NCBI GenBank assembly: GCA_963762565.1
Contig: CAVXLD010000010.1
Coordinates: 224,001 to 288,000, forward strand
Direction: 5' to 3'
Length of the DNA: 64,000 nt
Source: an uncultured Verrucomicrobiae bacterium
GTDB taxonomy: Bacteria > Verrucomicrobiota > Verrucomicrobiia > Chthoniobacterales > JAFAMB01
The notes beneath the pieces are model-generated. The model was not told the origin of the DNA. It saw nothing but the letters and a program-made list of their open reading frames with translations, and ran no database searches. Of the stretch, positions 15,292 through 53,487 are shown piece after piece. Each line of letters starts with the position of its first letter. Position 1 is the stretch's first letter. The translations under genes were made by a program, and so were the position numbers.

Positions 15292-15643
15292 GCGAATCGG
15301 CGAGAGGGCGAAACGGCGAAAGGGCCGATCGAAGCCCGGTGTTGGGTGGGGCGAGGCTCCGGAACCACCGACTGTATTCCCAAAGCCTGTTGTGGATTCC
15401 AACGATATCGTAAGCAAGGTCGATTCGCCGCCGAGCCGCAACCCAGCGCTATGCAGTCGAACCAAGCCTTCGATTTATCGGTGGTTTTTTTGGAGTGGTG
15501 AATCGAGGGTCACGGCTCGGCAGCGCACAGGCCTAACCCGCAACAGCCGAGGCGAATACCATTCGCTTTGGCCCGGCGTTTGAGTCCATTCCGAAGCCTC
15601 GCCCCACCGACGCTGGGCTTCGGTCGCCCATTCGCCGTTTCGC
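15292..15643. repeat. Family A split-REP element (15345-15608) nested in octamer GGCGAAAC arms
   Basis: GGTGGGGCGAGGCTCC 15345-60, GCCGAGCCG 15430-38, CGGCTCGGC 15513-21, GAAGCCTCGCCCCACC 15593-608; outer gcgaaacggcgaa/ttcgccgtttcgc. Confidence 0.85.
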
Positions 15644-15646
15644 AAA

Positions 15647-16411
15647 TCACCCCTGATCCGAAACTTCACTTGCCGTAAACGAAATCGACTGTACCGGCTC
15701 AGCGGGCACCCGTTGAGTCAGATGTTTCGATAGCACTTGGAAGTAACCCAGTGTGTCGCGAGCCGGACGAATTTTGCTCTGCTCCGCTCGGTAGATCGTT
15801 CGAATCGGGACGAAATCGATTGAGAACCCGCTACGAGCAGCCAACAACAAGCATTCGGTCTCGAAAGCGAATCCATCGCTGGACTGGAGCAGCACCGAAA
15901 GTAGACGCCGATGTGCCATTCGGTAACCGCATTGGCTATCGGGCAGTTTGCGCCGGCACAAGTTTCCGATTTGCCAGGACATGAATCGATTCGTCCAGCG
16001 ACGAACCCATGGCATTGTGGCCGGATTAATCATCCGGTTGCCCACCACCAGATCGGTCTTCGATTGTGAGGCTTTGTCTACGAATTTCGGGATCTCGCTG
16101 GGATCGTGCTGGCCATCTCCATCCAGAAAAAGGAAGTATTGATAGTTCTCCGCTGCCGCCCTTCGCAGGCCGGTCTTGATGGCCGCACCTTTTCCCAAAC
16201 GTTGCGGATGTCGGATCACAGTGGCTCCGGCCATTGCCGCCGCTGTGCCGGTGTTATCGAGGGAGTGATCATCGATCACGATGATCTTTTCTACGTGCGC
16301 TCTTACACCGCGAACGACTCCGGCGATAAAACGTTCCTCTTCATGGGCCGGAATAATGGCGCAAACCGTATCCGCAAGAGGCTCAATCATGAACTCGCGT
16401 TCAAGATTCAA
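15647..16411 (-). CDS. Glycosyltransferase family 2 (DPM synthase-like)
   Basis: IIPAHEE, VIDDHSLD, GKGAA, DGDGQH, DSQCGYR; start may be ATG 16390. Confidence 0.9.
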   Translation of the reverse strand: MNLEREFMIEPLADTVCAIIPAHEEERFIAGVVRGVRAHVEKIIVIDDHSLDNTGTAAAMAGATVIRHPQRLGKGAAIKTGLRRAAAENYQYFLFLDGDGQHDPSEIPKFVDKASQSKTDLVVGNRMINPATMPWVRRWTNRFMSWQIGNLCRRKLPDSQCGYRMAHRRLLSVLLQSSDGFAFETECLLLAARSGFSIDFVPIRTIYRAEQSKIRPARDTLGYFQVLSKHLTQRVPAEPVQSISFTASEVSDQG

Positions 16412-17310
16412 GTGCCCGACTGCCGGCGGGCGGTGGGATGATAGTCCGATGCATGATAGGAGCTCCTTACCAACGGACCGGAAGCCACATACTCAAAACC
16501 TTTGCTCAACCCGATCTCCCGATACGTTGCGAAGGTTTCCGGAGAAATATATTCCACCACAGGGAGATGCTGTGGCGTTGGCCGCAGATACTGGCCAAGT
16601 GTGAGCACTCGCACTCCGGATTCGCGCAGGTCGTCCATTGCTTGAAAAAGTTCGGGCTCGGTTTCGCCCAGACCTAGCATGATTCCGCTCTTGGTGACTA
16701 CTTCGGGGTCGATCTCTTTCGCTCGTCTCAACACCGACAAAGACAACCGATACTTGGCTCTCGACCGGACAAAAGGCGTTAGCCTTTCTACGGTTTCCAG
16801 ATTGTGATTAAAGATGTCAGGTTTGGCAGCCAACACCTCGGCCAGCGATTCCTCTCTCCCGTTGAAATCCGGAACTAGTACTTCGATAACGATGCTCGGA
16901 TCAGCGTTTCGGATTCCGTTAATCGTTCGGGCAAAATGATTTGCTCCCCCGTCCTTAAGATCGTCCCGAGCGACAGCGGTAATTACGACGTGTCTTAGTT
17001 TGAGCCGGAGCACTCCTTCAACGACGCGTTCGGGTTCGTCAGCTTCCAGGGCAAACGGCTTAGCCGTGGATACGGCACAGAATCCACACGCTCGCGTGCA
17101 TCGTTCCCCCGCGATCATGAACGTTGCAGTACCTTGGCTCCAACATTCCCAACGATTGGGGCACTGAGCTGACTCGCAGACTGTATGAAGCCGCAGATCC
17201 GAAATCAGCGCTTTGGTTGAGAAAAAAACCGGATTGGATGGCAGCCTAACCTTTATCCAGCTTGGCTTCCTGGCCTGGTGTAGGGCTGGATCAATTTTTG
17301 AACAAGACAT
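16408..17310 (-). CDS. lipA: Lipoyl synthase
   Basis: TVCESAQCPNRWECW, CTRACGFC, GQYLRP, VRSSYHA. Confidence 0.97.
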   Translation of the reverse strand: MSCSKIDPALHQARKPSWIKVRLPSNPVFFSTKALISDLRLHTVCESAQCPNRWECWSQGTATFMIAGERCTRACGFCAVSTAKPFALEADEPERVVEGVLRLKLRHVVITAVARDDLKDGGANHFARTINGIRNADPSIVIEVLVPDFNGREESLAEVLAAKPDIFNHNLETVERLTPFVRSRAKYRLSLSVLRRAKEIDPEVVTKSGIMLGLGETEPELFQAMDDLRESGVRVLTLGQYLRPTPQHLPVVEYISPETFATYREIGLSKGFEYVASGPLVRSSYHASDYHPTARRQSGT

Positions 17311-17516
17311 CGCGTATGGCGCCAAATTAGCCTGCGCCGCCGGAAAATGCATACGCATTTTTCGGCAGCGCAGGCTGTGGCAGGAGAATATTCCGGCTAC
17401 GCCGGATCATTCTCCTGCTGGTTAAGATAATCGTTTCAAGGGTCGCCATTTATTCAGAGCCCCTCCTCAAAGACGAGCGCGAAACCGGAAGCGTTACGAA
17501 CGGTCGACGACCGCAC

Positions 17517-17560
17517 AAAAAAAGCCGCAGAATGTCCGGTGTAACCGGATATTCTGCGGC
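17517..17560 (-). terminator. Rho-independent terminator of rplM-rpsI
   Basis: 16-bp stem GCCGCAGAATGTCCGG/CCGGATATTCTGCGGC followed by T7 on the minus strand. Confidence 0.8.
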
Positions 17561-17610
17561 CATAGCCTGGATCGCAGACAAATGCCTGACGCATTGTCTG
17601 CGAGACGGGC

Positions 17611-18000
17611 TTAACGCTTAGAAAACTGGAACCGCTTGCGTGCGCCGGGTTGGCCAGCTTTTTTCCGCTCTTTCATTCGCGGATCTCGCGTCAATAAGCC
17701 TTCCTCTTTCAAGACAGCGCGCATCGCGGCATCGACTTCGAGCAGCGCCCGAGCAATCCCAAGTCGAATCGCGCCTGCCTGACCGACAGGACCCCCACCA
17801 TGGGTTTTGGCCCTGACGTCGTAATTGTTCATTGTCTTGGTCACCTCGAAAGGCTTTAGAACCGTCAGCTGCAACGGGGCCGTTGGAAAATACTCCTCAA
17901 ATGGCCGACCATTGATCTCGATCACCCCGCTACCTCGCAGGAGCCTGACTCGGGCGACAGAGGTTTTGCGACGGCCTGTAGCAGTAAATGTATCCGACAT
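17611..18000 (-). CDS. rpsI: 30S ribosomal protein S9
   Basis: [10 protein letters not shown] ... [19 protein letters not shown]. Confidence 0.98.
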
Positions 18001-18006
18001 GGCTAG

Positions 18007-18429
18007 CTAGATGGAAATGGGTTCTTGCGCCCCGTGCGGATGTTGGTCACCGCGGTAAACCTTTAACTTGGTGTAAATCGAACGCCCAAGACGATTGTGG
18101 GGAATCATGCCTTTGACCGCATGCTCAATCAACAGTTCCGGCCGACGAGCGCGCCGGCGTTGTACCGTTTCGGATTTGTGCCCACCCACGTAACCGGAGA
18201 AACTCATGTACTCCTTTTGCGTCTCTTTCTTACCGGTCAATCGCACCTTTTCAGCATTGATGACGACCACGAAATCCCCAGTATCAACATGTGGCGTAAA
18301 TATTGGCTTTTGCTTTCCACGCAACAAATTGGCAACCTTGACGGCCACCCGGCCCAAGGGCTGGTTGCTGGCGTCTACGATGTACCACTTCCTGTCAATA
18401 TCACTAGATTTTGCTGAGAACGTAGTCAT
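18007..18429 (-). CDS. rplM: 50S ribosomal protein L13
   Basis: WYIVDA..LGR, TPHVDTGDFVVVINAEKV, AVKGMIP, HPHGAQ. Confidence 0.98.
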   Translation of the reverse strand: MTTFSAKSSDIDRKWYIVDASNQPLGRVAVKVANLLRGKQKPIFTPHVDTGDFVVVINAEKVRLTGKKETQKEYMSFSGYVGGHKSETVQRRRARRPELLIEHAVKGMIPHNRLGRSIYTKLKVYRGDQHPHGAQEPISI

Positions 18430-18453
18430 GCCGCTTTACCGAAAAGAGCGGGC

Positions 18454-18482
18454 AAAATAGGTGAATCCAATCCCAGTGTCAA
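18454..18482 (-). promoter_or_regulatory. Sigma-70 promoter of rplM-rpsI
   Basis: TTGACA(18482-18477)-N17-TATTTT(18459-18454). Confidence 0.65.
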
Positions 18483-19375
18483 CCAACAGTTTAACGAAAC
18501 TCCAGCAAAGGGAAGAGAAGTTCCCAAAGGGAAAAGAGGAATTCCCAAAGGGAAGGGAATTCCCAAAGGGAAGGGAATTCCCAAAGGGAAGGACATCGCT
18601 CGATGTACCACTGTGGTTGGTGATTCTGTTCGGAGTCCAGTTTGGACCAATTGCCCGCCTCTGCGCGGCCGATCCTGGAAACCTCTCCGTTCTGCTTCAA
18701 AGGGCGGATCACTTGGACGATACCGACCATTTTTTGGAAGCGATCGCCATCTTGAAAGAAGCAGAAAAAGGCGACCCAAAGGATGTCGAGATCCTCTACC
18801 GGATTTCGCGCGTGGAATCCGACCTGGTGGATGATCTATCCGATGAAGCCAAAAAAAAGCCCTACGCCACGGACTCCCTAGCCTATGCCAAACGCGCTAT
18901 AGAAGCCGACCCGCAAAACTCGGAAGCGCATCTTGCCGCCGCGATCGCTTACGGGGTAATGACCGATTTCGTCGATGATAGGACGAAGATGGAATACTCA
19001 AAGGTCATCAAATCGGAGGCCGAGAAAGCGATTGAGCTAGATCCGAAGAACGACTACGCCTATCTGGTCCTCGCCCGCTGGAACTTTGAAATGACGCAGC
19101 TGAACCCTTTCCTGAAGGGAATCGCCGAGATCCTTTATGGGCAAATGCCGCCGGCGTCACAGGAAAGGGCGCTCGAAGATTTCCAAAAAGCGATCGAGCT
19201 CGCTCCCGATAAGATGATTCACCATTTTTGCTATGGTGAAGCCCTGGCCAAACTCGGCCGCAAAGATCAGGCAAAGGCCGAATATCAAAAGGTACTTCGA
19301 TTGACTGCCACCTGCCGAGAGGAGCGCGGCTATCAACAGAAAGCGACCTCCGGCCTAAGAACGCTGGAGCGGTAA
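18461..19375 (+). CDS. Secreted TPR protein, paralog of 19926-20699; true start uncertain
   Basis: Hydrophobic LWLVILFGVQF signal-like stretch; shares LVLARWNFEM..LNP.LKGIAE..YGQ.PPAS with the paralog. Confidence 0.75.
   Translation: MNPIPVSTNSLTKLQQREEKFPKGKEEFPKGREFPKGREFPKGRTSLDVPLWLVILFGVQFGPIARLCAADPGNLSVLLQRADHLDDTDHFLEAIAILKEAEKGDPKDVEILYRISRVESDLVDDLSDEAKKKPYATDSLAYAKRAIEADPQNSEAHLAAAIAYGVMTDFVDDRTKMEYSKVIKSEAEKAIELDPKNDYAYLVLARWNFEMTQLNPFLKGIAEILYGQMPPASQERALEDFQKAIELAPDKMIHHFCYGEALAKLGRKDQAKAEYQKVLRLTATCREERGYQQKATSGLRTLER
18506..18592. repeat. 18-bp tandem repeat GAATTCCCAAAGGGAAGG (about 4.5 copies)
   Basis: Each unit contains the palindrome TTCCC-AAA-GGGAA; translates as EFPKGR. 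Confidence 0.85.
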
Positions 19376-19399
19376 TGGTCGCCGCCGGGACTAGCCTCA

Positions 19400-19457
19400 G
19401 ATGGGACCTATGGGACACATGGGACCTATAAGTCCTATAGGTCGCATAAGTCCCATC
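19400..19457. repeat. Nonamer (ATGGGACCT) palindromic element
   Basis: gatgggacctatgggacacatgggacct...agtcctataggtcgcataagtcccatc between convergent genes. Confidence 0.75.
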
Positions 19458-19530
19458 CGTCTATGGTCCCAAAGCTCATCACCACCACCAATCGCATATG
19501 CCCCCTCGACCACAGCCCACACGCCATTCG

Positions 19531-19893
19531 TCACGCCGTTTTGCGTTTGAAAGTGAGCGCGAGCCACCCACCCAACATTCCCAAACCTCCAAGGGGTGTA
19601 ATCGCTCCAATCCAAGGAATCTTCGTCAACGCCAGGAGATACAAAGAACCGCTAAAGAGAACAATACCGCCGAATATGAGCCAGAATGCTAGCCGCGGAA
19701 AGGGATCCCATCTGGAAATGACCAATAGGACAACCGCATGCACCAGATGATACAGCACGCCTGTTTGCCAGATCGAAAGCGTGCCCAGTGCATCCAACGT
19801 GGCGCGCAACGCGTGAGCCCCAAAAGCACCGCAAAAAACCGCAAAAAAGCCGCTCAGAGCCGCAACAGCCCTTGATAAATGATGATTCATCAT
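19531..19893 (-). CDS. DUF423 (YgdD/TMEM256) membrane protein
   Basis: GAFGAHAL, WQTGVLYHLVHA, LFSGSLY, GAITPLGG. Confidence 0.92.
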   Translation of the reverse strand: MMNHHLSRAVAALSGFFAVFCGAFGAHALRATLDALGTLSIWQTGVLYHLVHAVVLLVISRWDPFPRLAFWLIFGGIVLFSGSLYLLALTKIPWIGAITPLGGLGMLGGWLALTFKRKTA

Positions 19894-19925
19894 AAATATG
19901 CTCTCATTCTTAGGAGAGGGAAGAA

Positions 19926-20699
19926 ATGAAGAAGATAGGAGTCCTGGTCATGATGACCCTGGTTTCAATGGTGTCGTTTGCATCCGATGTCGAGTCGGCG
20001 CTCGAACAGGCCGACAAACTCGAGTCGCAAGGCGAGACCGAGTCCGCCATCCGTGTCTTGAAAGACGCGGACACGGCTTCACCGGAAAATGGTGAGATCG
20101 AAAAACGGTTGGCCCGCCTTTACGCGCGCAGAATCCAGGAGATCTCCGACCAGACCGAGAAGAAAACCGACGCGACCCTCGCGGTCGAGCTTGGTAAGAA
20201 GGCCGTCGCCAAGTTGCCCAACGACTCACAGGCGCATATTGGATTAGCCGCGGCCTACGGTCAGCTCTGTTGGTTCGTGGACGACAAGACCCGGGTCGAA
20301 TATTCCAAAGCAATTTATCAGGAGGTCAACAAAGGACTCGCGCTCGATCCGGACAGCGATTACGGGCACTTGGTTCTAGCGCGTTGGAATTTTGAGATGG
20401 CGACTCTGAATCCGGTATTAAAGGGTATCGCCGAGCTCGTCTACGGGCAGTTCCCACCCGCCTCAACTCAGGCCGCGATCGCCAATTTCAAGAAAGCCAT
20501 CGAACTGAACCCGAGTCGAGTCATTCACCACGCCGAATACGCTAAAGCTCTGGAAGCGCTAGGTGAGAAAGAGAAGGCGCGAGAAGAATGGACCAAAGTG
20601 ATCGAGCTCAAGGCCGTTGACGCTCAAGACCGATTATATCAGCGGATCGCAGCGGAACATCTGCACGAGAAAGCTCCAGCCCAAGCCGCCAGGGGCTAA
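19926..20699 (+). CDS. Secreted TPR protein
   Basis: Signal peptide MKKIGVLVMMTLVSMVSFA; TPR helices; paralog of 18461-19375. Confidence 0.85.
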   Translation: MKKIGVLVMMTLVSMVSFASDVESALEQADKLESQGETESAIRVLKDADTASPENGEIEKRLARLYARRIQEISDQTEKKTDATLAVELGKKAVAKLPNDSQAHIGLAAAYGQLCWFVDDKTRVEYSKAIYQEVNKGLALDPDSDYGHLVLARWNFEMATLNPVLKGIAELVYGQFPPASTQAAIANFKKAIELNPSRVIHHAEYAKALEALGEKEKAREEWTKVIELKAVDAQDRLYQRIAAEHLHEKAPAQAARG

Positions 20700-20719
20700 T
20701 CCGCAGAGGTTCCCGACCC

Positions 20720-20933
20720 AAGAAGGGATTATCCGCAGATTTCGCAGATTACGCAGATTTCGGTCTGAGGACTGCCGTACCGTGAGCTTCTTCAACACGC
20801 ACTGACAGGGAATGCTTTGAGAGGAATTGCCTCGAAAACGCTTGCTAAACAGGCGGCACCTTTGCTCTGCCACAGCGTAGTACCTCAAACCGAAATCTGC
20901 GTAATCTGCGTAATCTGCGGATAATCCCTTCTT
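20720..20933. repeat. Nonamer (CGCAGATTA) inverted-arm element
   Basis: 51-bp IR 20720-20770/20883-20933 with 2 mismatches; second copy at 43884-44106. Confidence 0.88.
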
Positions 20934-20936
20934 AAC

Positions 20937-21857
20937 CTATTTGCGGATGAGCATATAAGCGCCCAGGATTCTTTCTCGAATTGGCTCTGCGGACCGGGCA
21001 ATCTCTCGTTGCAACCGGACATACTGAGCCCGCCCATCTGCGGTCTCGATTGGGATCGGCTCGAATCCAAACTTTGTTAGATCGTAAGGGCTGGCTCGCA
21101 TGTCGAGTTCTCGAGCTGAATGCGCCAGCGCGAATGCGTCCGTCAAAAGCTCCGACTCGATCCAAGGCGCAATTTTATAGCAGAAGCGGTAGAGATCCAT
21201 ATTCACATGGACGCAAGCCGGTTGATCCATTTCCGTCGTGAGCCCGCGCTCAAGCAGCACCGAATTCCGGGGTTTCGCCCCCTCACTAAAGAAACGGAAA
21301 GCGTCGAAATGCGTGCAAGAGAGCTGTTGTGATTCCACAAAGCTATCCAGATCGGACCGGCTCAATCGTAGAGGCACTCCTTGATGTCGAATCGCCGGTT
21401 CCCGATAGACCATCGCCCACTCGTGGAGACCAAAGCAGCTAAAATTGGGCGCGCGGTCCGCGGTAGTGCTCAAAAATTTGATCGCCCAATCAACAAAGGG
21501 CAGCCGGTTAGCAGGGAACGCTGTGAGTCGCTGGCCCCGGCCGGCGCTTTCCCAGACACCGGCATCGCCCGTCATGTCTGCGCCTTCCAAAATCACCCCC
21601 GGCCCTGGAGACCACCGGAGCAGCTGCCCGGGACGAAATGAATAATATTCAAACAAAAAATCGTACACCGGATGCCGGGCGTGGCGCGATCGTCGCTCGA
21701 GAAAGGGATCTACCCAGGTCGAAACACGGGCCTGATGTTTTCTCGCGCGCTCCTGCCAAACCTCTTTCGGTAGAAACCGCTCTTCTCTACAGACTCCGTT
21801 TTCAGGGCTGACACCGCCCGCGTTTGTCTCGGTCTCGCCCAAAATCAATTCGTTCAT
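20937..21857 (-). CDS. Conserved uncharacterised protein of a family often labelled 3-methyladenine DNA glycosylase
   Basis: HPVYDFLFEYY, CFGLHEWAMVY, CTHFDAFRFF, QPACVHVNMDLY, DMRASPYD motifs recalled for this family; start moved to MNELILG. Confidence 0.75.
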   Translation of the reverse strand: MNELILGETETNAGGVSPENGVCREERFLPKEVWQERARKHQARVSTWVDPFLERRSRHARHPVYDFLFEYYSFRPGQLLRWSPGPGVILEGADMTGDAGVWESAGRGQRLTAFPANRLPFVDWAIKFLSTTADRAPNFSCFGLHEWAMVYREPAIRHQGVPLRLSRSDLDSFVESQQLSCTHFDAFRFFSEGAKPRNSVLLERGLTTEMDQPACVHVNMDLYRFCYKIAPWIESELLTDAFALAHSARELDMRASPYDLTKFGFEPIPIETADGRAQYVRLQREIARSAEPIRERILGAYMLIRK

Positions 21858-21879
21858 GCGCGCCAACAAAAACAGAGAA

Positions 21880-22040
21880 AAAATCTCACGCAAAGACCCA
21901 GCCTGCAACGCTTCGCGTGTCCTGTCCCATAAACAACGTGGCTGGGGCCAATGATCAGTCGTGGTCTTATCTTGGTGGCCTCCGTGATCTTGCTGTGAAC
22001 CTATCTGCCTTTGCGTCTTTGCGTCTTTGCGTGAGATTTT
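21880..22040. repeat. Octamer (TTTGCGTC) inverted-arm element enclosing a solo MITE end
   Basis: 18-bp IR AAAATCTCACGCAAAGAC 21880-97/22023-40; GTGTCCTGTCCCATAAACAACGT at 21917-39. Confidence 0.75.
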
Positions 22041-22049
22041 GGTTTCCGC

Positions 22050-22676
22050 ATGAGCTTGTCAGTTTACTTTGCCGGTGAGCTTTTCAACGCCAAACATTTA
22101 GCCGGTAACGCCGGACTCGCCGCTGCCATCCAGCGCCATTCCGACGGGCGATTTGTTTGTGTCCTGCCACAGACTCTGGAAAACCGGGAAGAGGGCGCCC
22201 ATTTCATCCGGGACGAAGACCTCGAACACCTAGTCTCCTCAGATATCGCGCTCTTCAATTTCGACGGTTCTGAAATCGATTCGGGCACCGTCGTAGAATT
22301 CCTGGTGGCAAAGTTCGCTGATATCCCGGCCCTCCTGCTACGTACTGATTTTCGGCGCGGCGGCGACCAAGGCCAAGAGCCCTGGAACCTCATGCTTAGC
22401 TTTTACCCGAGAACCACAACCTGCTGTCTTGACAGCATGGCTCTGTATAAGACCGCTTTGTCCGAAGGCCTAGATCCGGTTGGCGCGGCCGATCGGATGC
22501 TGGACCAGATCGCAACCCAAGTGATCCCAGAGCTAGATGCGCTCGCTCAGTCCAAACCAATTCTCCCAACGGAGCTTACCGACCCCGTCCACGATTGGTT
22601 GGTCCAATTCCCCGGTTTTCGTTCCCCAGAATCGATAACTCGAATTCGCCAAGCGCTACATCGCAAACGTCCTTGA
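22050..22676 (+). CDS. Nucleoside 2-deoxyribosyltransferase family protein
   Basis: VYFAGELF, LPQ, DSGTVVEF, TDFR, WNLM motifs. Confidence 0.8.
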   Translation: MSLSVYFAGELFNAKHLAGNAGLAAAIQRHSDGRFVCVLPQTLENREEGAHFIRDEDLEHLVSSDIALFNFDGSEIDSGTVVEFLVAKFADIPALLLRTDFRRGGDQGQEPWNLMLSFYPRTTTCCLDSMALYKTALSEGLDPVGAADRMLDQIATQVIPELDALAQSKPILPTELTDPVHDWLVQFPGFRSPESITRIRQALHRKRP

Positions 22677-22737
22677 AATTCCCGCCGCCGTCCACCAATC
22701 ACCTCTCACCAATCACCTCCCCTTCCTCCCCCTCCCC

Positions 22738-23832: not shown

Positions 23833-23846
23833 TAGTCGTCTGTTCG

Positions 23847-24245: not shown

Positions 24246-24255
24246 GAACCCGAGC

Positions 24256-30075: not shown

Positions 30076-30285
30076 GGTGGGGCGAGGCTCCCGAAGGAAC
30101 CTCGATTGGAACGAAGCTTGTAACGTTGCCCCACCGAACCCCATTGTTATGCCTTTGAACGCGCCGAGCCGTGGCCCACGATAGACCACGGCTCGGCGCG
30201 TTTATCGGCCTTGTTCATAATTTTGTTTGGGGTTCGCTTTACACCCTTGGTCGGTCGCCCAGTCTTTCGGGAGCCTCGCCCCACC
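30076..30285. repeat. Family A split-REP element
   Basis: GGTGGGGCGAGGCTCC 30076-91; hairpin GCGCCGAGCCGTGG-cccacgataga-CCACGGCTCGGCGC 30161-99; GGAGCCTCGCCCCACC 30270-85. Confidence 0.9.
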
Positions 30286-33888: not shown

Positions 33889-33962
33889 GGAGTTATAGCT
33901 CAATTGGTTAGAGCGCCGCCCTGTCACGGCGGAGGTTGCGGGTTCGAGCCCCGTTAACTCCG
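33889..33962 (+). tRNA. tRNA-Asp(GTC), CCA not encoded
   Basis: Acceptor GGAGTTA/TAACTCC, D arm GCTC/GAGC, anticodon stem CCGCC-CTGTCAC-GGCGG, T arm GCGGG-TTCGAGC-CCCGT. Confidence 0.97.
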
Positions 33963-41339: not shown

Positions 41340-41617
41340 GAGCTAGGGGTGGCGTCGCGGCTTTGGTAGAGGCTCCAGAAGAGCCCGGTGATTGACCAAG
41401 GGTTAACCGCACGAACGCCGAGAGATAATGAGCAAGGCCGATAGACGCGCCGAGCCGTGGCCCACGATATACCACGGCTCGGCGCGATCTAAGAGGTAAC
41501 AGCACGAGGTGGAGTGACGTCACTTAAAGCTTCGCTCAAACGATTGAATTAATCGGGAGCCTCGCCCCACCAAGGCAACACGCCCTCCTAACTCCTAGAT
41601 TCTAGCTCCTAGCTCCT
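41331..41617. repeat. Family A split-REP element (41362-41571) nested in GGAGCTA heptamer arms
   Basis: Outer AGGAGCTAGGAGCTAG/CTAGCTCCTAGCTCCT; inner hairpin 41447-41485; GGAGCCTCGCCCCACC 41556-71. Confidence 0.88.
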
Positions 41618-42691: not shown

Positions 42692-42697
42692 ATTAGA

Positions 42698-43883: not shown

Positions 43884-44106
43884 AACCGCAGATGGACGCG
43901 GATAAGAGGTATTATCCGCAGATTACGCAGATTTCGCAGATTTCGATTCGGGGCTCTATGCTACCCAGGGTTACAGAAAACGCGACCGAGCCAGAAAGAT
44001 GTTTTCATCTGACGGATGTGCCCGGCACAAAACCGAAATCTGCGTAATCTGCGTAATCTGCGGATATTAACCTCTTATCTGCGTTAATCTGTGTCCATCT
44101 GCGGTT
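43884..44106. repeat. Nonamer (CGCAGATTA) inverted-arm element
   Basis: aaccgcagatggac...tatccgcagattacgcagatttcgcagatttcg versus cgaaatctgcgtaatctgcgtaatctgcggata...gtccatctgcggtt. Confidence 0.88.
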
Positions 44107-47320: not shown

Positions 47321-47371
47321 GGGTGACGAACTTGCCGCGAAGCGGTTAAAGCAAGGGCCGGGCGCAAAACC

Positions 47372-47493
47372 GGGAGGGCGCGCGTCCCCGCGCGCCGCCA
47401 GGACCTGCCACCGCTCAACGAATATTTCGGGTCCGCGATCACAACGGGTCCTCGACTTCGGTAACAACGGATCGCGAGGACGCGATCCCTCCC
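47372..47493. repeat. REPIN doublet (GGAG-type), family I
   Basis: GGGAGGGCGCGCGTCCCCGCGCGCC (47372-96), 72 nt, GGATCGCGAGGACGCGATCCCTCCC (47469-93). Confidence 0.88.
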
Positions 47494-47680
47494 TGGCGAT
47501 GGACGCACCCACGATCCAAGAACGGCCTCGGGCCAAAAAGGCGCGGGCACACACCCGAATCGGCCTCCAAATCACTGACAAAAAATCGCCAAAACAGCGC
47601 TTTTCCCCTCGGGGCGTTACTCCAAGTTACAGATTTTCGTCGAGAATCCGGGAGCGGATAGATATATTGATGGCCAGATA

Positions 47681-48874
47681 ATGATTCAAAGAGATTACCT
47701 GATCGTTGGAGGCGGGATCGGGGCGGCCAGTGCTTGCAACGCGTTGCGTCAATATGACCCAAAGGGTGCGGTAACCTTAGTTAGTAACGAGGCTTTTCTA
47801 CCCTACAATCGTCCTGAACTCTCCAAATCTGTCCTGAAGAACGGTAGCCCGTCGGTCGAGAGACTCGCCGACCATTCCGAGGATTGGTACCGAAAACGGA
47901 ATATTGAGCTGCGGCTGGGCACCATCGTCCGCGAATTCAATATTGAGCGGCGTCTGGCAGTGATGGAAAACGGACAGGCGATCGAATTTCGAAAAGCGTG
48001 TTTAGCCACTGGGAGCCGGCCCCGGAGGCCCCAGGTCGCCGGCGCTACGCTAGGCAACGTCGTATACCTACGGACCTATCGCGATGTGCTGGCCGTTCGC
48101 GAGATTCTCGCCTCGGAAAAACATGTTGTTGTTGTCGGCTCAGGCTATCTGGGAGCCGAGGTGACTTCGTCGCTCATCGGCTCCGGGGCGAAACTGACGC
48201 TCCTTAGTCGCGACAAATCTGTCTGGCAGGATCTGCTGGATCCGGAGACTTCACGCTGGTTGACCGATCTTTTTGCAGAAGACGGTGTTCAATTGATGCT
48301 GAACGAAAACCTGAACGGTTTCGAAGGTAAGACCGTCGTCCGGAACATCCAGACTAAGAGCGGTATTCGTTTTCCAGCTGGACTGGCAATAGTCGTGATC
48401 GGCACGGAGCCGAATCTACAGTTGGTCTTAAATACCCCGCTCAGCAGCCCAGGCGGGTGCCCTGTTAACGAATACCTCGAGAGCGACGAAAAAGGCATTT
48501 ATGCCGTCGGCGACATCGCCCTTTATCCAGACCGTATTTTTGGAGGCGCCAGACGGGAGACCAGCTGCGAAATGGCAAAGCTTCAAGGAGCCACAGCGGG
48601 TGCGAACATGACGGGTCGAAAACGCCAAAAGTTCGACGTTATCCCGGTCTCCTCTGCCGTTGTGCTAGGTATGCATTTCGATCTGGTCGGCGACTTTGCC
48701 ATAGCTCATCTCGACGGAGAGATCGAAGGTTCACGCGAGAAGAAGAATTTTATTGCCCGTTACCACCGAGGCGAAAGTTTGGTGGCAGCTGTGTTGTGCA
48801 ATCGAAAACCGGAAGAGGTGAGCAAACTCCAGGAAGAAATCCGGGTCAGTATGCAGTCCAGGCTCAAGAAGTAA
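47681..48874 (+). CDS. FAD-dependent pyridine nucleotide oxidoreductase (ferredoxin reductase-like)
   Basis: IVGGGIGA, PYNRPELSK, LATGS, VVGSGYLGAE, IYAVGD. Confidence 0.9.
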   Translation: MIQRDYLIVGGGIGAASACNALRQYDPKGAVTLVSNEAFLPYNRPELSKSVLKNGSPSVERLADHSEDWYRKRNIELRLGTIVREFNIERRLAVMENGQAIEFRKACLATGSRPRRPQVAGATLGNVVYLRTYRDVLAVREILASEKHVVVVGSGYLGAEVTSSLIGSGAKLTLLSRDKSVWQDLLDPETSRWLTDLFAEDGVQLMLNENLNGFEGKTVVRNIQTKSGIRFPAGLAIVVIGTEPNLQLVLNTPLSSPGGCPVNEYLESDEKGIYAVGDIALYPDRIFGGARRETSCEMAKLQGATAGANMTGRKRQKFDVIPVSSAVVLGMHFDLVGDFAIAHLDGEIEGSREKKNFIARYHRGESLVAAVLCNRKPEEVSKLQEEIRVSMQSRLKK

Positions 48875-48919
48875 CGCCGTCAGCGCCGGGAACGTCGACA
48901 ACGCCGGGAAAGGGAACCT

Positions 48920-49161
48920 GGTGGGGCGAGGCTCCCGAAAGACCTACAGGGATAATCGGAGGCAATAAGATGACTCGACGCCGCAAAGCGATAATAGGCC
49001 GGAAATCCCGCCGAGCCGTTGTCGCCTGATGTGCCACCTTTTAGGCCTGGCCACACCATAGACCTGCGGCTCGGCGGCGCAGCCACCTTGTGCGCGTCGG
49101 GCTGAAATAAATCAGCAGGCTTTGTGAAAACACGGTCGTAGTTCGGGAGCCTCGCCCCACC
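48920..49161. repeat. Family A split-REP element
   Basis: Arms 48920-35 and 49146-61; inner GCCGAGCCG 49010-18 and CGGCTCGGC 49067-75. Confidence 0.9.
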
Positions 49162-49202
49162 AATGTTTGCCGGCCCTACCGGCGCTATTGGCATTGACGG
49201 CG

Positions 49203-50102
49203 TTAAAAGACCAGGGGCACGCCTTCGTCCATGATCTTCACGGAGTGCTCCAATTTGTGACGGGAGATTTCCTCCTTGAGTCTTTGGACGGGCTCTTCCA
49301 CCGGTTCGTAGCTGAGCCTGAATGAACCGTAGTGCATCGGTATCATGTACTTCGCTTTGAGTTCCTTGAAGGCGCGAACCGCCTGTTCCGGATTCATGTG
49401 AACTTCGCGTTTCGTGGGCGGCTCATACGCGCCGATCGGTAAGAGCGCTATCTCGGTCGGCAAGTTCTCGCCGATTTGGCTGAACCCGTCGAAATAGGCG
49501 CTATCGCCGCAATGAAAAATTGAGCGTGATCCGAGGCGGACATGAAAACCTCCAAACCCTCGATACCGATCGTGGAGAACTCTTGCTCCCCAATGAAGGC
49601 AAGGAGTGAGTGTGACGTGGATATCGCCGACCGAAAGTGATTCCCAGGGTTGCATCTCGTGTACTCGGTTAAACCCGAGACCTTCTACGAGCGTGCCGAC
49701 ACCCTCAGGTACAATAATTGGCTGCGCCGCGGCGACTCTGCGCAAGGTTCTCCGATCCAAATGATCGAAATGGGCATGAGTTACCAGGACCAGATCGATA
49801 TCTGGAAGATGGTCTAACCGAATCCCTGGATGCCGGAGCCGTTTGATCACCTTCAACCAAAGAGACCAGATTGGATCGATCAAAATATTCAGACCACGCC
49901 AGCTGATTAAAAACGAGGCATGGCCGATCCAGGTCAGACAAACTTGGTCGGCCGATAAGATTGGGAACAGGGGGCGCAAGGCTCTACCGCGACGGCGGAC
50001 AAACAACGACGGCAGATAAATCTCGGTAATGAAATTTCTACGCAACCAACCTTTACCGGGTCGAAGACTGACCGGCCGGCCTATTAATCTCTTTGAGACC
50101 AT
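49203..50102 (-). CDS. MBL-fold metallo-hydrolase (NAPE-PLD/RomA-like)
   Basis: TWIGHASF, THAHFDHLD, FHCGDSAY, LPIGAY, PMHYGSF. Confidence 0.9.
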   Translation of the reverse strand: MVSKRLIGRPVSLRPGKGWLRRNFITEIYLPSLFVRRRGRALRPLFPILSADQVCLTWIGHASFLISWRGLNILIDPIWSLWLKVIKRLRHPGIRLDHLPDIDLVLVTHAHFDHLDRRTLRRVAAAQPIIVPEGVGTLVEGLGFNRVHEMQPWESLSVGDIHVTLTPCLHWGARVLHDRYRGFGGFHVRLGSRSIFHCGDSAYFDGFSQIGENLPTEIALLPIGAYEPPTKREVHMNPEQAVRAFKELKAKYMIPMHYGSFRLSYEPVEEPVQRLKEEISRHKLEHSVKIMDEGVPLVF

Positions 50103-50131
50103 GCGTCTTGCGGTGCTGGCGCTTCCGTCCC

Positions 50132-50446
50132 GGGAGGGCGCGCTGCCTGTCCGACGTAGCCCGTGCTCCCGCGTTTGTTCCTCGTTTGGCCCAGCGAAGT
50201 CGGATCCTCGCGCGCCGCGAAAACGGTCCCGGCCTTGAAATATAGTTTATTCGCTCGATATGAAAAAACCTTGGACTCCGCGAACCATGGATCGCGAGGA
50301 CGCGATCCCTCCCGGTCTTTGGGTAGCTCATCAGCGTCCCCGCGTGCCGCTAAAACCGGTCCCCGCCTTGAAATATAATTTATTCGCTCGATATGAGAAA
50401 ACCTCGAACTCTGCGAACCACGGATCGCGAGGACGCGATCCCTCCC
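50132..50446. repeat. Tandem pair of family I REPINs (~133-bp duplication)
   Basis: GGATCGCGAGGACGCGATCCCTCCC at 50289-313 and 50422-446, each preceded by a similar 72/73-nt spacer (gccttgaaatata.tttattcgctcgatatga). Confidence 0.88.
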
Positions 50447-50459
50447 CGTCCGGGGTTCA

Positions 50460-50849
50460 TTAGCCATCGTTTCGCGGGACGCGAAGTTCAAAACGGGGAA
50501 TCCGAGCAACAAAAGGTTCACCACCCTCACCTATACCCAAAAAAGCGCCTTCGGCGACGCTATCCTCTGCAATAACATGATAACTGTTGTAGCTGAATTT
50601 TTCTCCTGGCTGGAGCCGGGGAAACTCACCTACAACGCCATCCCCTTCAACGACCAGCTTGCCACCATGAGAATCGGTTACAACCCATTTTCGTCCACGG
50701 ATCGTCACGTTTTCGGGCGAATCATTACGAATTGTAATAAAGTACACAAAAGGATACGGACGATCCGGGGGAGCTTCCAATGTCGGCACATAGACGACTT
50801 TATCAATCGTGACCCTTACCTCGGACAGTTCGCGGAACGCGTTGCTCAT
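50460..50849 (-). CDS. apaG: ApaG domain protein
   Basis: FVYFITIRN, RKWVVTD, VEGDGVVGEFPRL.PGE.FSYNS. Confidence 0.9.
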   Translation of the reverse strand: MSNAFRELSEVRVTIDKVVYVPTLEAPPDRPYPFVYFITIRNDSPENVTIRGRKWVVTDSHGGKLVVEGDGVVGEFPRLQPGEKFSYNSYHVIAEDSVAEGAFLGIGEGGEPFVARIPRFELRVPRNDG

Positions 50850-50883
50850 GGTTAATTTACCAGCCCGTTAAGAGAGTTATTTC

Positions 50884-51684
50884 ATGGAGCCACCGCCTGT
50901 AGTCGTTACCATCGCCGGATCGGATAGCTCAGCCGGAGCCGGAATCCAGGCTGATCTAAAGACATTTACTTATTTCCGCGTATTTGGCCAGAGCGTCGTA
51001 ACCTGCATTGTAGCGGAGGTTCCGGGAAGGGTACAAAGGATCGAACCAGTCAGCGCTGAAGCCGTGCAGGACCAGCTCAGGCTAAGCCTGGAATATTTCC
51101 CGGTGAGCGCGATCAAGACCGGGATGCTGTACTCAAAGGAAATCATCAGCGCCGTGTGCGAGACCCTGGAGGAAATTCCCTCTAAAGTAAGACCGGCATT
51201 GGTAGTCGACCCCGTTATGGTAGCGTCCTCGGGCGATTCACTATTGCAGAAGGATGCTTTGGAGATCTATCGGAACCGTCTATTTCCTTTGGCCACGGTT
51301 GTTACTCCTAACCGTGACGAGACTGCGATTATTCACGGACGTACCGTTGAGACGGTAACGGAATTAGAAGCAATCGGCCCAGAATTGGTTCAACGCTACG
51401 GAACCGCATTCCTGCTGAAAGGAGGTCACTGGCCAGGTGATTTAGCGATCGACTATCTTGCGACGCAAGCTGGTATCACGCGCTTAGCCGAACCATTTGT
51501 CGCCGCCAAATCCACACACGGAACTGGCTGCACCTTATCAGCTGCGCTCGCAGCCGGTCTGGCTCTGGGTGACACTTTGCCGGCCGCAGCTCGCCGGGCG
51601 AAAACGTTCGTCACGCGGGCCATTGCCGAATCAATGACCTGGTCCGGCCAGCATGGTCAGGTTATGGCGCTCAAGCATTGGTGA
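50884..51684 (+). CDS. thiD: Hydroxymethylpyrimidine/phosphomethylpyrimidine kinase
   Basis: TIAGSDSSAGAGIQADLK, IKTGML, VDPVMV, KGGH, THGTGCT. Confidence 0.95.
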   Translation: MEPPPVVVTIAGSDSSAGAGIQADLKTFTYFRVFGQSVVTCIVAEVPGRVQRIEPVSAEAVQDQLRLSLEYFPVSAIKTGMLYSKEIISAVCETLEEIPSKVRPALVVDPVMVASSGDSLLQKDALEIYRNRLFPLATVVTPNRDETAIIHGRTVETVTELEAIGPELVQRYGTAFLLKGGHWPGDLAIDYLATQAGITRLAEPFVAAKSTHGTGCTLSAALAAGLALGDTLPAAARRAKTFVTRAIAESMTWSGQHGQVMALKHW

Positions 51685-51687
51685 GGA

Positions 51688-51918
51688 CGTGGAGCGCTGC
51701 CTCGCTTGCGAGGCCGTAAGGGGTCGCCACCCGTGGAGCGCTGCCTCGCTTGCGAGGCCGTGGTGAACAAGGATGATATGGTGCGCTAGGCGTATCGTCG
51801 GCTGCGCTCTGCAACGTGAAGAGGCACAAGTCCCAAGACAGAGCGATGACCGAAAAAGGTTTGCATCAATAAGTCGCTTTGTTCACCACGGCCTCGCAAG
51901 CGAGGCAGCGCTCCACGG
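51688..51918. repeat. GTGG-type REP triplet / REPIN
   Basis: CGTGGAGCGCTGCCTCGCTTGCGAGGCCGT at 51688 and 51732; perfect 40-bp IR 51731-70/51879-918. Confidence 0.88.
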
Positions 51919-52015
51919 TCTCCGACCGCCACAAATCACAAAGTACTTCTCATTTGCCCGCCAATTCTTCCCACCTTGTTTTGTCGCCCGGCCCTCATAT
52001 ACTGCAAACACCCCC

Positions 52016-53281
52016 ATGTCTAAGAAACTACTCTGGTTAGGATTACTGGCGCTAAGCACCTTCGGCGCCAATCACGTTCAAGGAAAGACCCAACTCATTA
52101 TTGAGAGCTGGCGTAGCGACGATCTTAAGATCTGGCGAGATACGATTATCCCTGCATTTACTAAGCAGCACCCCGATATCGAGGTCGTCTATTCGCCCAC
52201 TCCCCCAACAGAATATAACGCGGTTCTAGATTCAAAACTCAAGGCAGGAACTGCCGGCGATTTGATCGCCTGCCGGCCGTTCGACAAATCGCTGGATATG
52301 TATAACGCTAGCCAACTCGTTGCGCTCAATGATCTGCCGGGCATGGACAATTACTCGAAATTCGCCTTGGCTGCTTGGTCGACCGACAACGGCAAAACTT
52401 CTTTCGCCGTGCCGATGGCATCCGTGATCCACGGGTTTATCTATAACAAAGCAATTTTTAAGGAACTCGCCTTGAGTATCCCCAAGACAGAAAAAGAATT
52501 TCTAGCCGTCTTGGACAAAATTAAGGCTAATGGCAAATACAGCCCGCTGGTGATGGGAACCAAGGATCAGTGGGAATCCGCCACCATGGGCTACCAAAAC
52601 ATCGGACCCACGTTGTGGGACGGTGAAACCGGCCGCAAAGCCTTGATCGATGGTTCCGCCCAATACAACAAAGGCGGCTTTTTGGCAGCGTTCGAAGCCT
52701 TGGCCAAATGGAAGCCTTACCTGGCGCCCGGATATCAAGCTTTAGCCTACTCGGATGCGCAGAATCTATTCGCTCAAGGCCGTGGAGCTATCTATCCGGC
52801 GGGCTCGTGGGATATTGCTGTGTTCCGCCAGATGAATCCAAAATTGGATTTTGGCGCCTTCAAACCGTACTCGTTCGAAGGGAAGAGTGAGGTCGTGGTT
52901 GATCAACAACCTGACATCGCCTTAGGGCTGAATGCAGCCAGCAAAAACAAAGAGGCGGCCCGCACCTTCCTAGCCTGGGTGGCGACACCGGAATTTGCCG
53001 AACTATATGGCAACGCTTTGCCCGGATTCTTTCCGTTGGCCAACGGCACCTACACCCCCAAAGATCCTGTCGCTCAGGAATTCGCCAGTTGGCTTAAAGA
53101 GGGTCCAACTTCGTTCCGATGCTCGTACCAGATCCTCTCTCGCAATGCCAATCCGAACAACGAAAACGATCTTTGGAATGCATGTGCTCAGGTGTTAAAC
53201 GGCACTTATACTCCGCAACAAGCCGCGGATTTCGTACAGAAGGATCTAGCTTCCTGGTACAAACCACAGCAAGCGCGGTAA
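52016..53281 (+). CDS. Carbohydrate ABC transporter substrate-binding protein
   Basis: Signal peptide MSKKLLWLG; IESWRSDD, FIYNKAIF, AIYPAGSW; followed by two permeases. Confidence 0.9.
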   Translation: MSKKLLWLGLLALSTFGANHVQGKTQLIIESWRSDDLKIWRDTIIPAFTKQHPDIEVVYSPTPPTEYNAVLDSKLKAGTAGDLIACRPFDKSLDMYNASQLVALNDLPGMDNYSKFALAAWSTDNGKTSFAVPMASVIHGFIYNKAIFKELALSIPKTEKEFLAVLDKIKANGKYSPLVMGTKDQWESATMGYQNIGPTLWDGETGRKALIDGSAQYNKGGFLAAFEALAKWKPYLAPGYQALAYSDAQNLFAQGRGAIYPAGSWDIAVFRQMNPKLDFGAFKPYSFEGKSEVVVDQQPDIALGLNAASKNKEAARTFLAWVATPEFAELYGNALPGFFPLANGTYTPKDPVAQEFASWLKEGPTSFRCSYQILSRNANPNNENDLWNACAQVLNGTYTPQQAADFVQKDLASWYKPQQAR

Positions 53282-53283
53282 TA

Positions 53284-53487
53284 GCGAAACGGCGCACGGG
53301 CGAAACGGCGAGCGGGCGAGTCGGAGCCTTGCTGGTAGGGCGAGGCTCCGGAACGACCTGAACATTTTCGCGAAGATCAATCGCTCGACCCAATCGATCA
53401 ATGAGTTACGCCGAAATGCCGCCGAGCCGTCACCGAGCGCGTGCCATTGTTTCGCCGTTTCGCCCACTCGCCCATTCGCCGTTTCGA
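53284..53487. repeat. Half family A element (53334-53429) nested in GGCGAAAC octamer arms
   Basis: GGTAGGGCGAGGCTCC, 71 nt, GCCGAGCCG; outer cgaaacggcg.../...cgccgtttcg. Confidence 0.8.

Follow-up and report, generated by a model that had tools for sequence, protein, structure and literature searches.

RAYT proteins are HUH/Y1 nucleases that work on folded single-stranded DNA. REPINs and RAYTs have been argued to be long-lived, vertically inherited partners of the genome, and the purpose of their conserved parts is still debated. In Pseudomonas fluorescens SBW25, REPINs possess inverted invariant 16-mers at their ends and a variable spacer between them, whose length was named critical by the authors (Bertels and Rainey 2011, PMC3116915; bioRxiv 10.1101/2021.07.10.451892). 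The repeat family described here, family A, also has such inverted end blocks, and it shares with the SBW25 REPINs an extragenic location, hundreds of copies, a predicted hairpin fold and a single-copy RAYT flanked by the same repeats. It differs in having two tiers of inverted blocks, two length-constrained spacers and a free core, with the small REP palindrome interrupted. Compensatory spacer changes, which are reported to be common in SBW25, do not maintain pairing in family A. The elements are 210-290 nt long compared to about 100 nt for SBW25-type REPINs, and their ends lie 178-260 nt apart, beyond the 130-nt REPIN-calling limit of the published pipeline (bioRxiv 10.1101/2021.07.10.451892). 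REPIN callers needing ends within 130 bp would score family A as singlets; the repeat content of soil Verrucomicrobiota is therefore likely under-described.

With the REP/BIME and TnpA-REP system of Escherichia coli (PDB 4er8; PMC3479197, PMC3333891, PMC8266576), family A shares an HUH/Tyr nuclease of about 150-165 aa and a GTAG-type tag 5' of the palindrome. The E. coli REPs measure 29-37 nt and have small loops, whereas in family A about 71 nt interrupt the stem on either side; by analogy with the E. coli TnpA-REP (PMC8266576), tolerance of a large unpaired insert is plausible. Unlike the E. coli REP, family A has GTGG as its tag in about half of the copies, and GTGG variants have also been reported in the verrucomicrobium O. 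terrae (Di Nocera et al. 2013, PMC3733652). According to the same report, which deals with GTAG-tagged REP dimers, some RAYT genes are flanked by composite inverted repeats in which a degenerate GTAG unit is joined to another stem-loop; the largest REP loops it mentions are 9-27 nt, compared to about 71 nt throughout the genus in family A.

A preliminary description of this DNA had not recognized the architecture as a described one, and this view stands only in part. That spacers vary while their length matters is already found in the REPIN literature (PMC3116915; bioRxiv 10.1101/2021.07.10.451892; PMC3733652), but the portions of these papers examined contained no REP with an insertion of about 71 nt in its own small hairpin. 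What is unusual in family A is only that the hairpin is held open by a filler of about 71 bases, its sequence drifting and its length kept.

Family A elements and their RAYT gene

The window (the whole stretch of DNA analyzed, 64,000 nt) contained eight matches to the outer arm GGTGGGGCGAGGCTCC at up to 3 mismatches compared to 0.71 expected, a number reached by none of 100 shuffled sequences, and 11 exact matches to the inner arm GCCGAGCCG compared to 1.52 expected. The five copies listed in the preliminary description, with their spacer lengths and cores of 74, 17, 17 and 48 nt, were reproduced from the coordinates of these matches (Table 1). The left outer arm of the third element was likewise confirmed to be degenerate; it gave no match at 3 mismatches, and only the right spacer of this copy was measured. 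The half-unit at the end of the series has no inverted partner. All window copies lie between long ORFs. The isolated inner-arm hairpin is a sixth site in the window, absent from the earlier list, and is possibly a remnant or relative of family A.

Table 1. Coordinates of family A features in the window (arm, spacer and core lengths in nt).
Feature	Coordinates	Strand	Parts and context
Full element	15345..15608	.	between ORFs 14807-15289(+) and 15647-16411(-)
Left half of element 15345..15608	outer arm 15345-15360; inner arm 15430-15438		spacer 69; followed by core 74
Right half of element 15345..15608	inner arm 15513-15521; outer arm 15593-15608 (1 mismatch)		spacer 71
Full element	30076..30285	.	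210 nt; spacers 71 and 72, core 17
Full element, left outer arm degenerate	41362..41571	.	core 17
Parts of element 41362..41571	inner arms 41449-41457 and 41475-41483; outer arm 41556-41571		right spacer 72
Full element	48920..49161	.	242 nt; spacers 74 and 70, core 48
Single half-unit (REP singlet)	53334..53429	+	GTAG-type outer arm, spacer 71, inner arm
Isolated inner-arm hairpin	12314..12353	.	inner arm and, 22 nt further on, its inverted copy; no outer arms

A link between these GT[A/G]G-led, REP-type repeats and a RAYT had been proposed, and a RAYT gene was found between the arms on the window's own contig. At G000:C10:17254-18009, a full element with 70- and 69-nt spacers has a 152-aa ORF within its 568-nt core. 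This ORF scored 84.5 bits (cut-off, 80) against the NCBIfam equivalog NF047646 REP_Tyr_transpos and matched TnpArep of PDB 4er8 (E value, 6.2e-7) in an alignment that takes in the HUH and Tyr regions; a search with Pfam PF01797 gave no hit at E values up to 1. The HLH and Y..NPV motifs are kept in 12 RAYT orthologues. The gene is present as a single copy in this genome, with one match of 100% and a next best match, 48% identical, to a different RAYT. It is also the only enclosed gene found in family A elements, and encodes an HUH RAYT, not a DDE transposase such as the parent element of a MITE would carry. Orthologues in two congeners (G002 and G004) are 83-87% identical and have split arms alongside: G002 has a full split element around the gene, and G004 has arms on one side, where the contig ends. 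In G042, G022 and G057, the orthologues are 59-62% identical and compact arms lie alongside. The orthologous proteins are collinear.

Spacing, cores and arms across the genome

Across the 6.1-Mb genome, the outer arm was matched 538 times at up to 2 mismatches and the inner arm 573 times exactly. Among outer arms with an inner arm within 300 nt, the spacer was 67-74 nt in 224 of 247 left arms and 201 of 217 right arms. When a half-unit was defined as the outer 16-mer, a spacer of 67-74 nt and the inner 9-mer, 445 half-units were obtained genome-wide, with a mean spacer of 70.6 nt (sd 1.8). Inverted pairing of 362 of them gave 181 full palindromic elements and left 83 unpaired. Hundreds more copies are present in the five congeners, each of which has the family, and the spacer-length histogram is narrow there as in this genome.

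The core had been described as freely varying. Its length is indeed variable, but this is incomplete because the lengths are multimodal across the 181 elements: 82 have cores of 15-19 nt, other clusters lie at approximately 44-49, 73-76 and 85-105 nt, and five cores measure 441-1741 nt. Mean total element length ranges from 209 to 285 nt among the core classes. In family B, a sister family in this genome, two or three discrete spacings occur, about 33, 56 and 69 nt, and there is thus no universal fixed ruler.

The outer-arm 16-mers, with 225 and 213 copies, are among the top 16-mer families of the genome. The near-invariance of the arms noticed in the window holds genome-wide: arm mismatches in half-units were none in 398, one in 50 and two in 20, which points to constraint in situ. 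The tag at outer-arm positions 2-5 is GTGG or GTAG, with the A state in 46% of half-units. In 410 of the 445 half-units, the GGCTC and GAGCC halves of a 5-bp stem stand about 75 nt apart, and such a stem around a loop of this size is not stable by itself. A contiguous short palindrome (about 14-40 nt) occurs only in the compact relatives. By crude ORF calls, 147 of the 181 elements lie between genes; 33 midpoints fall inside predicted ORFs, which are likely spurious frames crossing the repeat.

Homology and drift of the spacers

The spacers had appeared only remotely alike, and the genome-wide data agree: the gapless identity of same-length spacers is 0.36 compared to 0.25 for shuffled sequences. 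Nevertheless, 438 of the 445 have a neighbor scoring above all of about 8,900 null scores, with faint in-register base preferences along the entire spacer, and spacer subfamilies go with core type. These results contradict the preliminary proposal that REPs were opened one by one and loaded with unrelated DNA of measured length, in the manner of spacer capture. The narrow length histogram across genome and genus would fit such loading, as would the middle 30 nt of the spacer, which show almost no conservation. Furthermore, another genus has a different, conserved insert of about 81 nt in this slot (8 copies in G043 and 1 in G004), and split copies in G020 have spacers of 70-88 nt; the loop slot thus appears to have been filled more than once. 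However, no source of the spacers was found elsewhere in the genome. Only 22 of 445 match anything outside known units, all of these being degenerate family members or a repeat nested within one spacer. At the RAYT locus, orthologous spacers are 51-69% identical at 68-70 nt, still recognizably the same sequence after speciation, and have changed by substitution plus 1-nt indels like other non-coding DNA there, whose stretches show length changes of only a few nt. The mutual homology of the spacers largely refutes copy-by-copy loading, which we regard as extremely improbable. The measuring mechanism invoked with it also fails, given substitutional divergence at the RAYT locus and the several spacings of family B. 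CRISPR-like spacer capture was rejected on the same grounds of mutual homology and a lack of any source elsewhere in the genome. A related but distinct possibility is that the REP loop position is a permissive or preferred insertion slot filled repeatedly in three genera (about 71 nt, about 81 nt and 70-88 nt); we hold this only tentatively and consider it rather unlikely.

By BLAST, 390 of the 445 spacers are singletons. Most copies are thus without a close relative and recent copy-and-paste is not evident; the arms are therefore kept by something other than recency. One explanation is that the elements are host-level functional elements, preserved site by site because they serve the cell, and that the RAYT link is historical. 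They could be 3'-end RNA structures that stabilize or terminate transcripts, or platforms for DNA-bending or nucleoid proteins whose footprint fixes the spacing of about 71 nt. About 400 half-units with near-invariant arms, set against spacers drifted to 36% identity, need constraint in place, and the spacer length is kept though core length in these same elements runs from 8 nt to beyond 100 nt. Placement is also consistent with a host role: elements start a median 24 nt past a stop codon, convergent-gene gaps are enriched (48 of 147 elements compared to 887 of 4681 of all gaps), and in congeners a second family with this layout has taken over the same gaps. On the other hand, no RNA contig from the single RNA run covered the elements, the sense-strand G-U wobble test (9 compared to 4) was not significant, the spacers have no conserved structure, and in family B spacings of both 33 and 69 nt are tolerated. 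This explanation is compatible with the REPIN identity established here, but we consider it unlikely.

Stem covariation, compact relatives and the proposed origin

Predicted folds contained the outer stem in 171 of 172 cases. Outer-arm position 4 (G or A) agreed between both arms in 150 of 177 elements, compared to 240 of 368 nearest-relative controls and about 50% by chance; the outer stem therefore covaries. Covariation between element halves was also seen in the spacer, at its first position and its last 3-4 positions, and native elements fold 5.4 kcal/mol better than chimeras. Together with conservation of both the outer and inner stems, these features would suit a family of structured non-coding RNA genes in which the fold rather than the sequence is conserved. 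Against this, the spacers alone showed no excess folding energy (z +0.3; 60 of 445 sampled), and left-right spacer complementarity was no better than that with the partner of the nearest relative (0.427 compared to 0.442). No Rfam family with this layout emerged, as the window gave only a tRNA at gathering score and one element searched alone gave nothing below an E value of 0.9, a result that also counts against a host RNA role. A flanked RAYT gene, a copy number of several hundred and strand symmetry that is perfect mark a REP rather than an RNA gene, and we consider an RNA gene family very unlikely.

The preliminary description had noted that removal of the spacer yields a compact REP hairpin. 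This form exists: in soil Verrucomicrobiota of sister genera in the same family, the outer and inner blocks abut, 0-3 nt apart and without the 71-nt spacer, the outer block often in tandem multiples, and they flank the orthologous RAYT (59-62% identity). The view of family A as an opened REP was accordingly right. Per genome, genus g4 has up to 103 copies of the compact pattern, g8 has 1-15 and this genus (g1) has 0-2; the split pattern has 38-287 copies per genome in this genus and 0-8 elsewhere, and the few split copies in g8 have similar spacer starts.

Taken as a whole, the following account of family A, as the REPIN-type non-coding palindromic repeat population of one single-copy RAYT, is in our judgment likely. 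The ancestral unit would have been a compact hairpin, still dominant in sister genera, in which a GTAG-tagged outer block adjoins the inner block, the two blocks sharing a 5-bp GGCTC/GAGCC mini-stem whose loop is 5 nt. On the branch of this genus, both arms may have gained about 71 nt at the loop position; the split form would then have displaced the compact one, including at the flanks of the RAYT gene itself, and reached hundreds of sites a short way past gene ends. The direction from compact to split is suggested by the distribution among genera rather than by a rooted species tree, and the few split copies in g8 count against it. Since then, the arms, about 20 nt (outer) and about 12 nt (inner), have been held almost invariant in place, and both spacers have accumulated substitutions about as fast as other non-coding DNA and now look unrelated. 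Spacer length would be that of the founder, and would have persisted since small indels seldom occur and a larger one is either purged or ruins the element; the sd of 1.8 nt could reflect a few 1-nt indels per lineage. Selection on this length, rather than mere inheritance, seems the somewhat better supposition. In single-stranded DNA or RNA, the outer arms would pair with each other, as would the inner arms, and the spacers would form a large, partly complementary internal region.

If the loop position is indeed a slot filled more than once, the possibility rated rather unlikely above, the RAYT of this clade would recognize a bipartite substrate, two conserved modules at a set distance joined by a sequence-free linker, and more than 400 module pairs would be kept in place, presumably needed by the host or by the RAYT-REPIN partnership. 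For HUH single-strand nucleases, such a substrate geometry would be new, and the elements would be a natural case of spacing, not sequence, as the selected character. Family A separates what is constrained (two short block pairs and their spacing) from what is free (about 140 nt of filler and the core). Because compact and split versions occur naturally with orthologous, collinear transposases, a direct biochemical test of RAYT recognition is possible.

The RAYT presumably still moves these elements. Direct excision or insertion events were not seen, and the contigs of four runs gave no trustworthy excision joint. Orthologous sites in congeners that are empty or taken by another family suggest mobility or turnover of family A. 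Element 41362..41571 would not fit into the orthologous gaps, which measure 86 nt in G005 and 135 nt in G003. In G004 and G005 the site of element 48920..49161 is empty, whereas G003 has the other family there, and at the site of element 30076..30285, the orthologous gap in G002-G005 carries a different repeat family with the same layout.

Family A in the window and across the genome

Family A is a REPIN-type repeat in which an outer arm, a spacer of about 71 nt, an inner arm and a core are followed by the inverted inner arm, a second spacer and the inverted outer arm. With ≤3 mismatches allowed, the outer arm (GGTGGGGCGAGGCTCC) matched the window eight times (0.71 expected); the inner arm (GCCGAGCCG) had 11 exact matches (1.52 expected). 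The motif coordinates gave spacers of 69/71, 71/72, –/72, 74/70 and 71 nt and cores of 74, 17, 17 and 48 nt, which are exactly the values of the preliminary description. The left arm at 41362, called degenerate there, lay beyond matching in the outer-arm search. All copies in the window were intergenic, between long ORFs. The description of the elements is therefore real and accurate. Also found between two ORFs, and absent from the preliminary list, was an isolated inner-arm hairpin that lacks outer arms and has an extended stem; genome-wide, approximately 128 of 573 inner arms lie outside recognised half-units (outer arm, spacer and inner arm).

The source genome (G000; 6.12 Mb, 15 contigs) contains 538 outer arms (≤2 mismatches) and 573 exact inner arms, and the outer 16-mers, with 225 and 213 copies, are among its most abundant. 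The spacer-length histogram called for in the preliminary description was narrow: 224 of 247 left and 201 of 217 right gaps measured 67–74 nt (inner arm ≤300 nt from the outer arm). The 445 half-units extracted had a mean spacer of 70.6 nt (sd 1.8); 362 of them formed 181 inverted pairs and 83 were unpaired. Core length was multimodal, with 15–19 nt in 82 of 181 elements, clusters near 44–49, 73–76 and 85–105 nt, and five very long cores of 441–1741 nt, while spacer length was 70–71 nt regardless of core size. According to a crude ORF-based gene call, elements started a median of 24 nt past the upstream stop codon and were enriched in gaps between convergent genes (48/147 vs. 887/4681 of all gaps) and depleted between divergent genes (16/147 vs. 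881/4681).

None of the four comparable window sites carried family A in congeners (see table). Because coding DNA among these species is 75–90% identical, this comparison spans a long time. Family B, a second repeat family with outer arm CCTGGAGGGGAGCCGCTTTGG and inner arm GGGCGGCTCCCG, has a two-tier layout like that of family A and, at 30076 and 48920, fills its intergenic sites in congeners. Contigs were also taken from four of 20 listed public sequencing runs (three DNA, one RNA). Joints across elements in these contigs had sides shorter than 30 nt and derived from other repeat copies; the contigs of the RNA run did not cover family A elements.

Coordinates of features in the window and of the RAYT-bearing element
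Feature	Position	Remark
Isolated inner-arm hairpin	window 12314-12353	
Family A site	window 30076-30285	family B instead in G002-G005
tRNA-Asp (GTC)	window 33889-33962	only Rfam or ARAGORN match in the window
Family A site	window 41362	shorter gap in relatives
Mirrored short tandem arrays	window 43899-44077	
Third repeat family	window 47372-47498	
Family A site	window 48920-49161	empty in G004 and G005; family B in G003
Family A site	window 53334	shorter gap in relatives
RAYT-bearing family A element	G000:C10:17254-18009	207 kb upstream of the window, same contig

The RAYT gene of family A

Family A had no match to any Rfam family. A search with Pfam PF01797 yielded 12 hits to REP-associated tyrosine transposases (RAYTs) in the source genome and a further 29 in five relatives; family A arms lay beside none of these. 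These RAYTs were rejected as partners of family A, since each has different repeats at its flanks and belongs to another REP family. As tblastn queries, for which they were the wrong choice, they gave no match at 80 loci of the compact form, in which outer and inner arms abut.

The cognate RAYT was identified through family A elements with long cores. One such element is full, with all four arms (two outer, two inner); its spacers measure 70 and 69 nt, and a 152-aa protein is encoded in its 568-nt core (see table). The protein was undetected by Pfam PF01797; it scored 84.5 bits against the curated NCBIfam equivalog for REP-associated tyrosine transposase (cut-off 80) and matched the solved Escherichia coli TnpA-REP (4er8) with an E value of 6e-7 in an alignment that includes the HUH and tyrosine regions. 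It is single copy, and the next best match in the genome is 48% identical. A RAYT gene flanked by the arms, which the preliminary description had proposed to look for, is thus present. With this single-copy RAYT enclosed by a full element, family A is, by the core definition, a REP/REPIN-RAYT system. A derivation of the long cores by deletion from the RAYT-bearing element was discarded: 87 cores showed no similarity to it apart from one trivial 11-nt match. At least five other RAYT-sized genes in the genome each have distinct flanking inverted repeats of their own.

Compact relatives and the nature of the spacers

All five congeners have many copies of the outer arm (33–334 at ≤1 mismatch), which is rare in other genera. 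In a genome of sister genus g4 (G022), this arm directly adjoins G[C/T]CCGAGCCG, after which come a loop of approximately 17 nt and the mirror image, and the outer block is often in tandem repeat. Compact and split (spacer-containing) copies both occur in one genome of sister genus g8 (G020). In a comparison of 43 genomes from the family, compact copies numbered up to 103 per genome in g4, 1–15 in g8 and 0–2 in the source genus g1; the split pattern had 38–287 copies in the five searched genomes of g1 and 0–8 elsewhere, where several matches were artefacts caused by adjacent compact units. Public MAGs with the label Verrucomicrobiota or Chthoniobacterales yielded more than 125 compact sites. 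Spacer removal had been said to yield a compact REP hairpin, and sequences of this kind exist in the sister genera. In the compact form, GGCTC/GAGCC makes a 5-bp mini-stem with a 5-nt loop, and in the split form 71 nt sit in that loop; equivalently, the 71-nt spacers are a symmetric internal interruption of a 26-bp long hairpin.

Orthologues of the RAYT are flanked by split arms in G002 and G004 (83–87% identity) and by compact arms in G042, G022 and G057 (59–62% identity). The orthologues are collinear without insertion, which ruled out a domain gain in the RAYT as the cause of the split form. Near RAYT relatives in G055, G047 and G010, the outer block recurs in direct orientation every ~137–145 nt. 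A different, highly conserved insert of ~81 nt occupies the slot between outer and inner blocks in some single half-units (G043:C67, G043:C81 and G004:C79), with eight copies in G043 and one in G004 that are nearly identical across two genera; it had no Rfam match and no excess fold.

The preliminary description read each REP as opened and loaded with a cargo of fixed length. BLAST among the spacers left 390 of 445 as singletons. In global alignment, 438 of 445 scored higher with one or more neighbours than the highest of ~8,900 null scores (median, 19 such neighbours). Spacers of the same length, stacked without gaps, were 36% identical compared with 25% after shuffling; the first nine positions, positions 20–26 and position 62 were clearly conserved, and weak in-register base preferences extended along the full length. 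Spacer type tracked core type: the subfamily with 16-nt cores is symmetric, and that with 17-nt cores has a different spacer type on each side. Only 22 of 445 spacers matched the source genome outside known units, and all of these matches were to degenerate copies or to a single foreign repeat nested in one spacer. A spacer-only profile HMM, too weak to be useful, gave four matches in the genome, all within known units. Spacer base composition equals that of the genome, and autocorrelation within ~2% of shuffled sequences gave no sign of periodicity or decayed tandem arrays. Self-folding of the spacers was rejected, with mean z of +0.27 and +0.35 on the two strands (60 of 445 sampled). At the orthologous RAYT locus of G000, G002 and G004, the flanking spacers are 51–69% identical and 68–70 nt long, with indels of only 1 nt. 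The untranslated leader inside the RAYT core is, as judged by eye, about as diverged, so spacer drift appears to proceed at roughly the rate of local non-coding DNA. Homology, common register, core-linked subfamilies, the lack of a source elsewhere in the genome and orthologous drift thus contradict the reading of the spacers as cargo.

The narrow spacing holds across the genus, as the spans listed for G002, G003 and G004 mostly correspond to spacers of 70–73 nt. A length constraint is favoured by the constrained arms (see below) and by steady spacers beside variable cores: spacers longer than 77 nt were found in 10 of 247 left and 8 of 217 right gaps, while cores of the same elements span 8 to >100 nt. 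On the other side, a few 1-nt indels per lineage would account for an sd of 1.8 nt, and non-coding DNA elsewhere at the RAYT locus likewise changed in length by only a few nucleotides. In family B (GGAGGGGAGCCGC ... GGCGGCTCCC; 425 outer arms in the source genome), spacings fall into three narrow classes, near 33, 56 and 69 nt, and most elements have the same class on both sides (69/69 in 53, 33/33 in 26, mixed in 12). Together with the common origin of the spacers, these observations led us to read the apparent ruler as the length of the founder's spacer, and the dedicated measuring mechanism proposed earlier was unsupported. The founder's length would be kept by the rarity of indels and probably also by selection against larger ones; that selection acts on spacer length is a view to which we moderately incline.

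Arm constraint and comparison with described REPINs

With A and G at position 4 taken as equivalent, 398 half-units had no outer-arm mismatch, 50 had one and 20 had two. The spacers of these half-units differ at approximately 64% of sites. Pure birth and death, with arms intact through youth, predicts a near-identical parent or sibling for each copy, a pattern not seen by BLAST or global alignment. The arms are therefore held in place and are clearly under constraint there. Position 4 is the sole variable arm position, and both outer arms agree in 150 of 177 elements; for the relative nearest in spacer sequence the figure was 240 of 368, and chance would give ~50%. This agreement is evidence that the outer arms pair or are co-corrected.

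Single-stranded DNA folding predicted the outer stem in 171 and the inner stem in 148 of 172 elements, and native elements were predicted to be 5.4 kcal/mol more stable than chimeras with the right half of another element. Left-right agreement also exceeded that of permuted partners at the first spacer position and at the last 3–4. Compensatory pairing between left and right spacers was rejected: native pairing exceeded that of random partners (0.409 vs. 0.349) but not that with the right half of the nearest relative (0.427 vs. 0.442), indicating that residual complementarity is inherited, not maintained. Strand bias of G-T over A-C states, a test for a role as RNA, was not significant (9 vs. 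4).

In the consulted portion of a preprint (10.1101/2021.07.10.451892), the REPIN spacer is highly variable, the usual REPIN size is ~100 bp, and a limit of 130 bp is set for pairing REPs. The portion consulted of Di Nocera et al. (PMC3733652) gives dimer spacers of 20–100 bp, some unlike in sequence yet similar in length; it also records the GTGG tag from a verrucomicrobium and gives REP loops as long as 27 nt. Variable spacers of fixed length and the link to a RAYT are already known. Unlike the REPINs described in these portions, family A has the REP palindrome itself interrupted by ~71 nt, a two-tier layout and a size of 210–290 nt. No description of family A was found in the literature covered on RAYTs in Chthoniobacter and on GTAG/REP in Verrucomicrobia. 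Family A is a REPIN/RAYT system with a new architecture, and the cargo loading and measuring proposed for it are not supported.

Further repeats accompany family A. The top non-homopolymer 16-mer of the source genome is a palindrome, GCCTCGCTTGCGAGGC, with 419 copies, and marks yet another repeat family. In the window, the third family pairs two different small GC-rich hairpins, set ~70 nt apart around a variable interior and bracketed by GGGAGG...CCTCCC; its 16-mers occur ~196 times in the genome, and contigs from other copies skip 67–76 nt. The mirrored tandem arrays, with units of ~7–9 nt related to CGCAGATT, surround a unique core, and contigs from other copies skip 92–106 nt.
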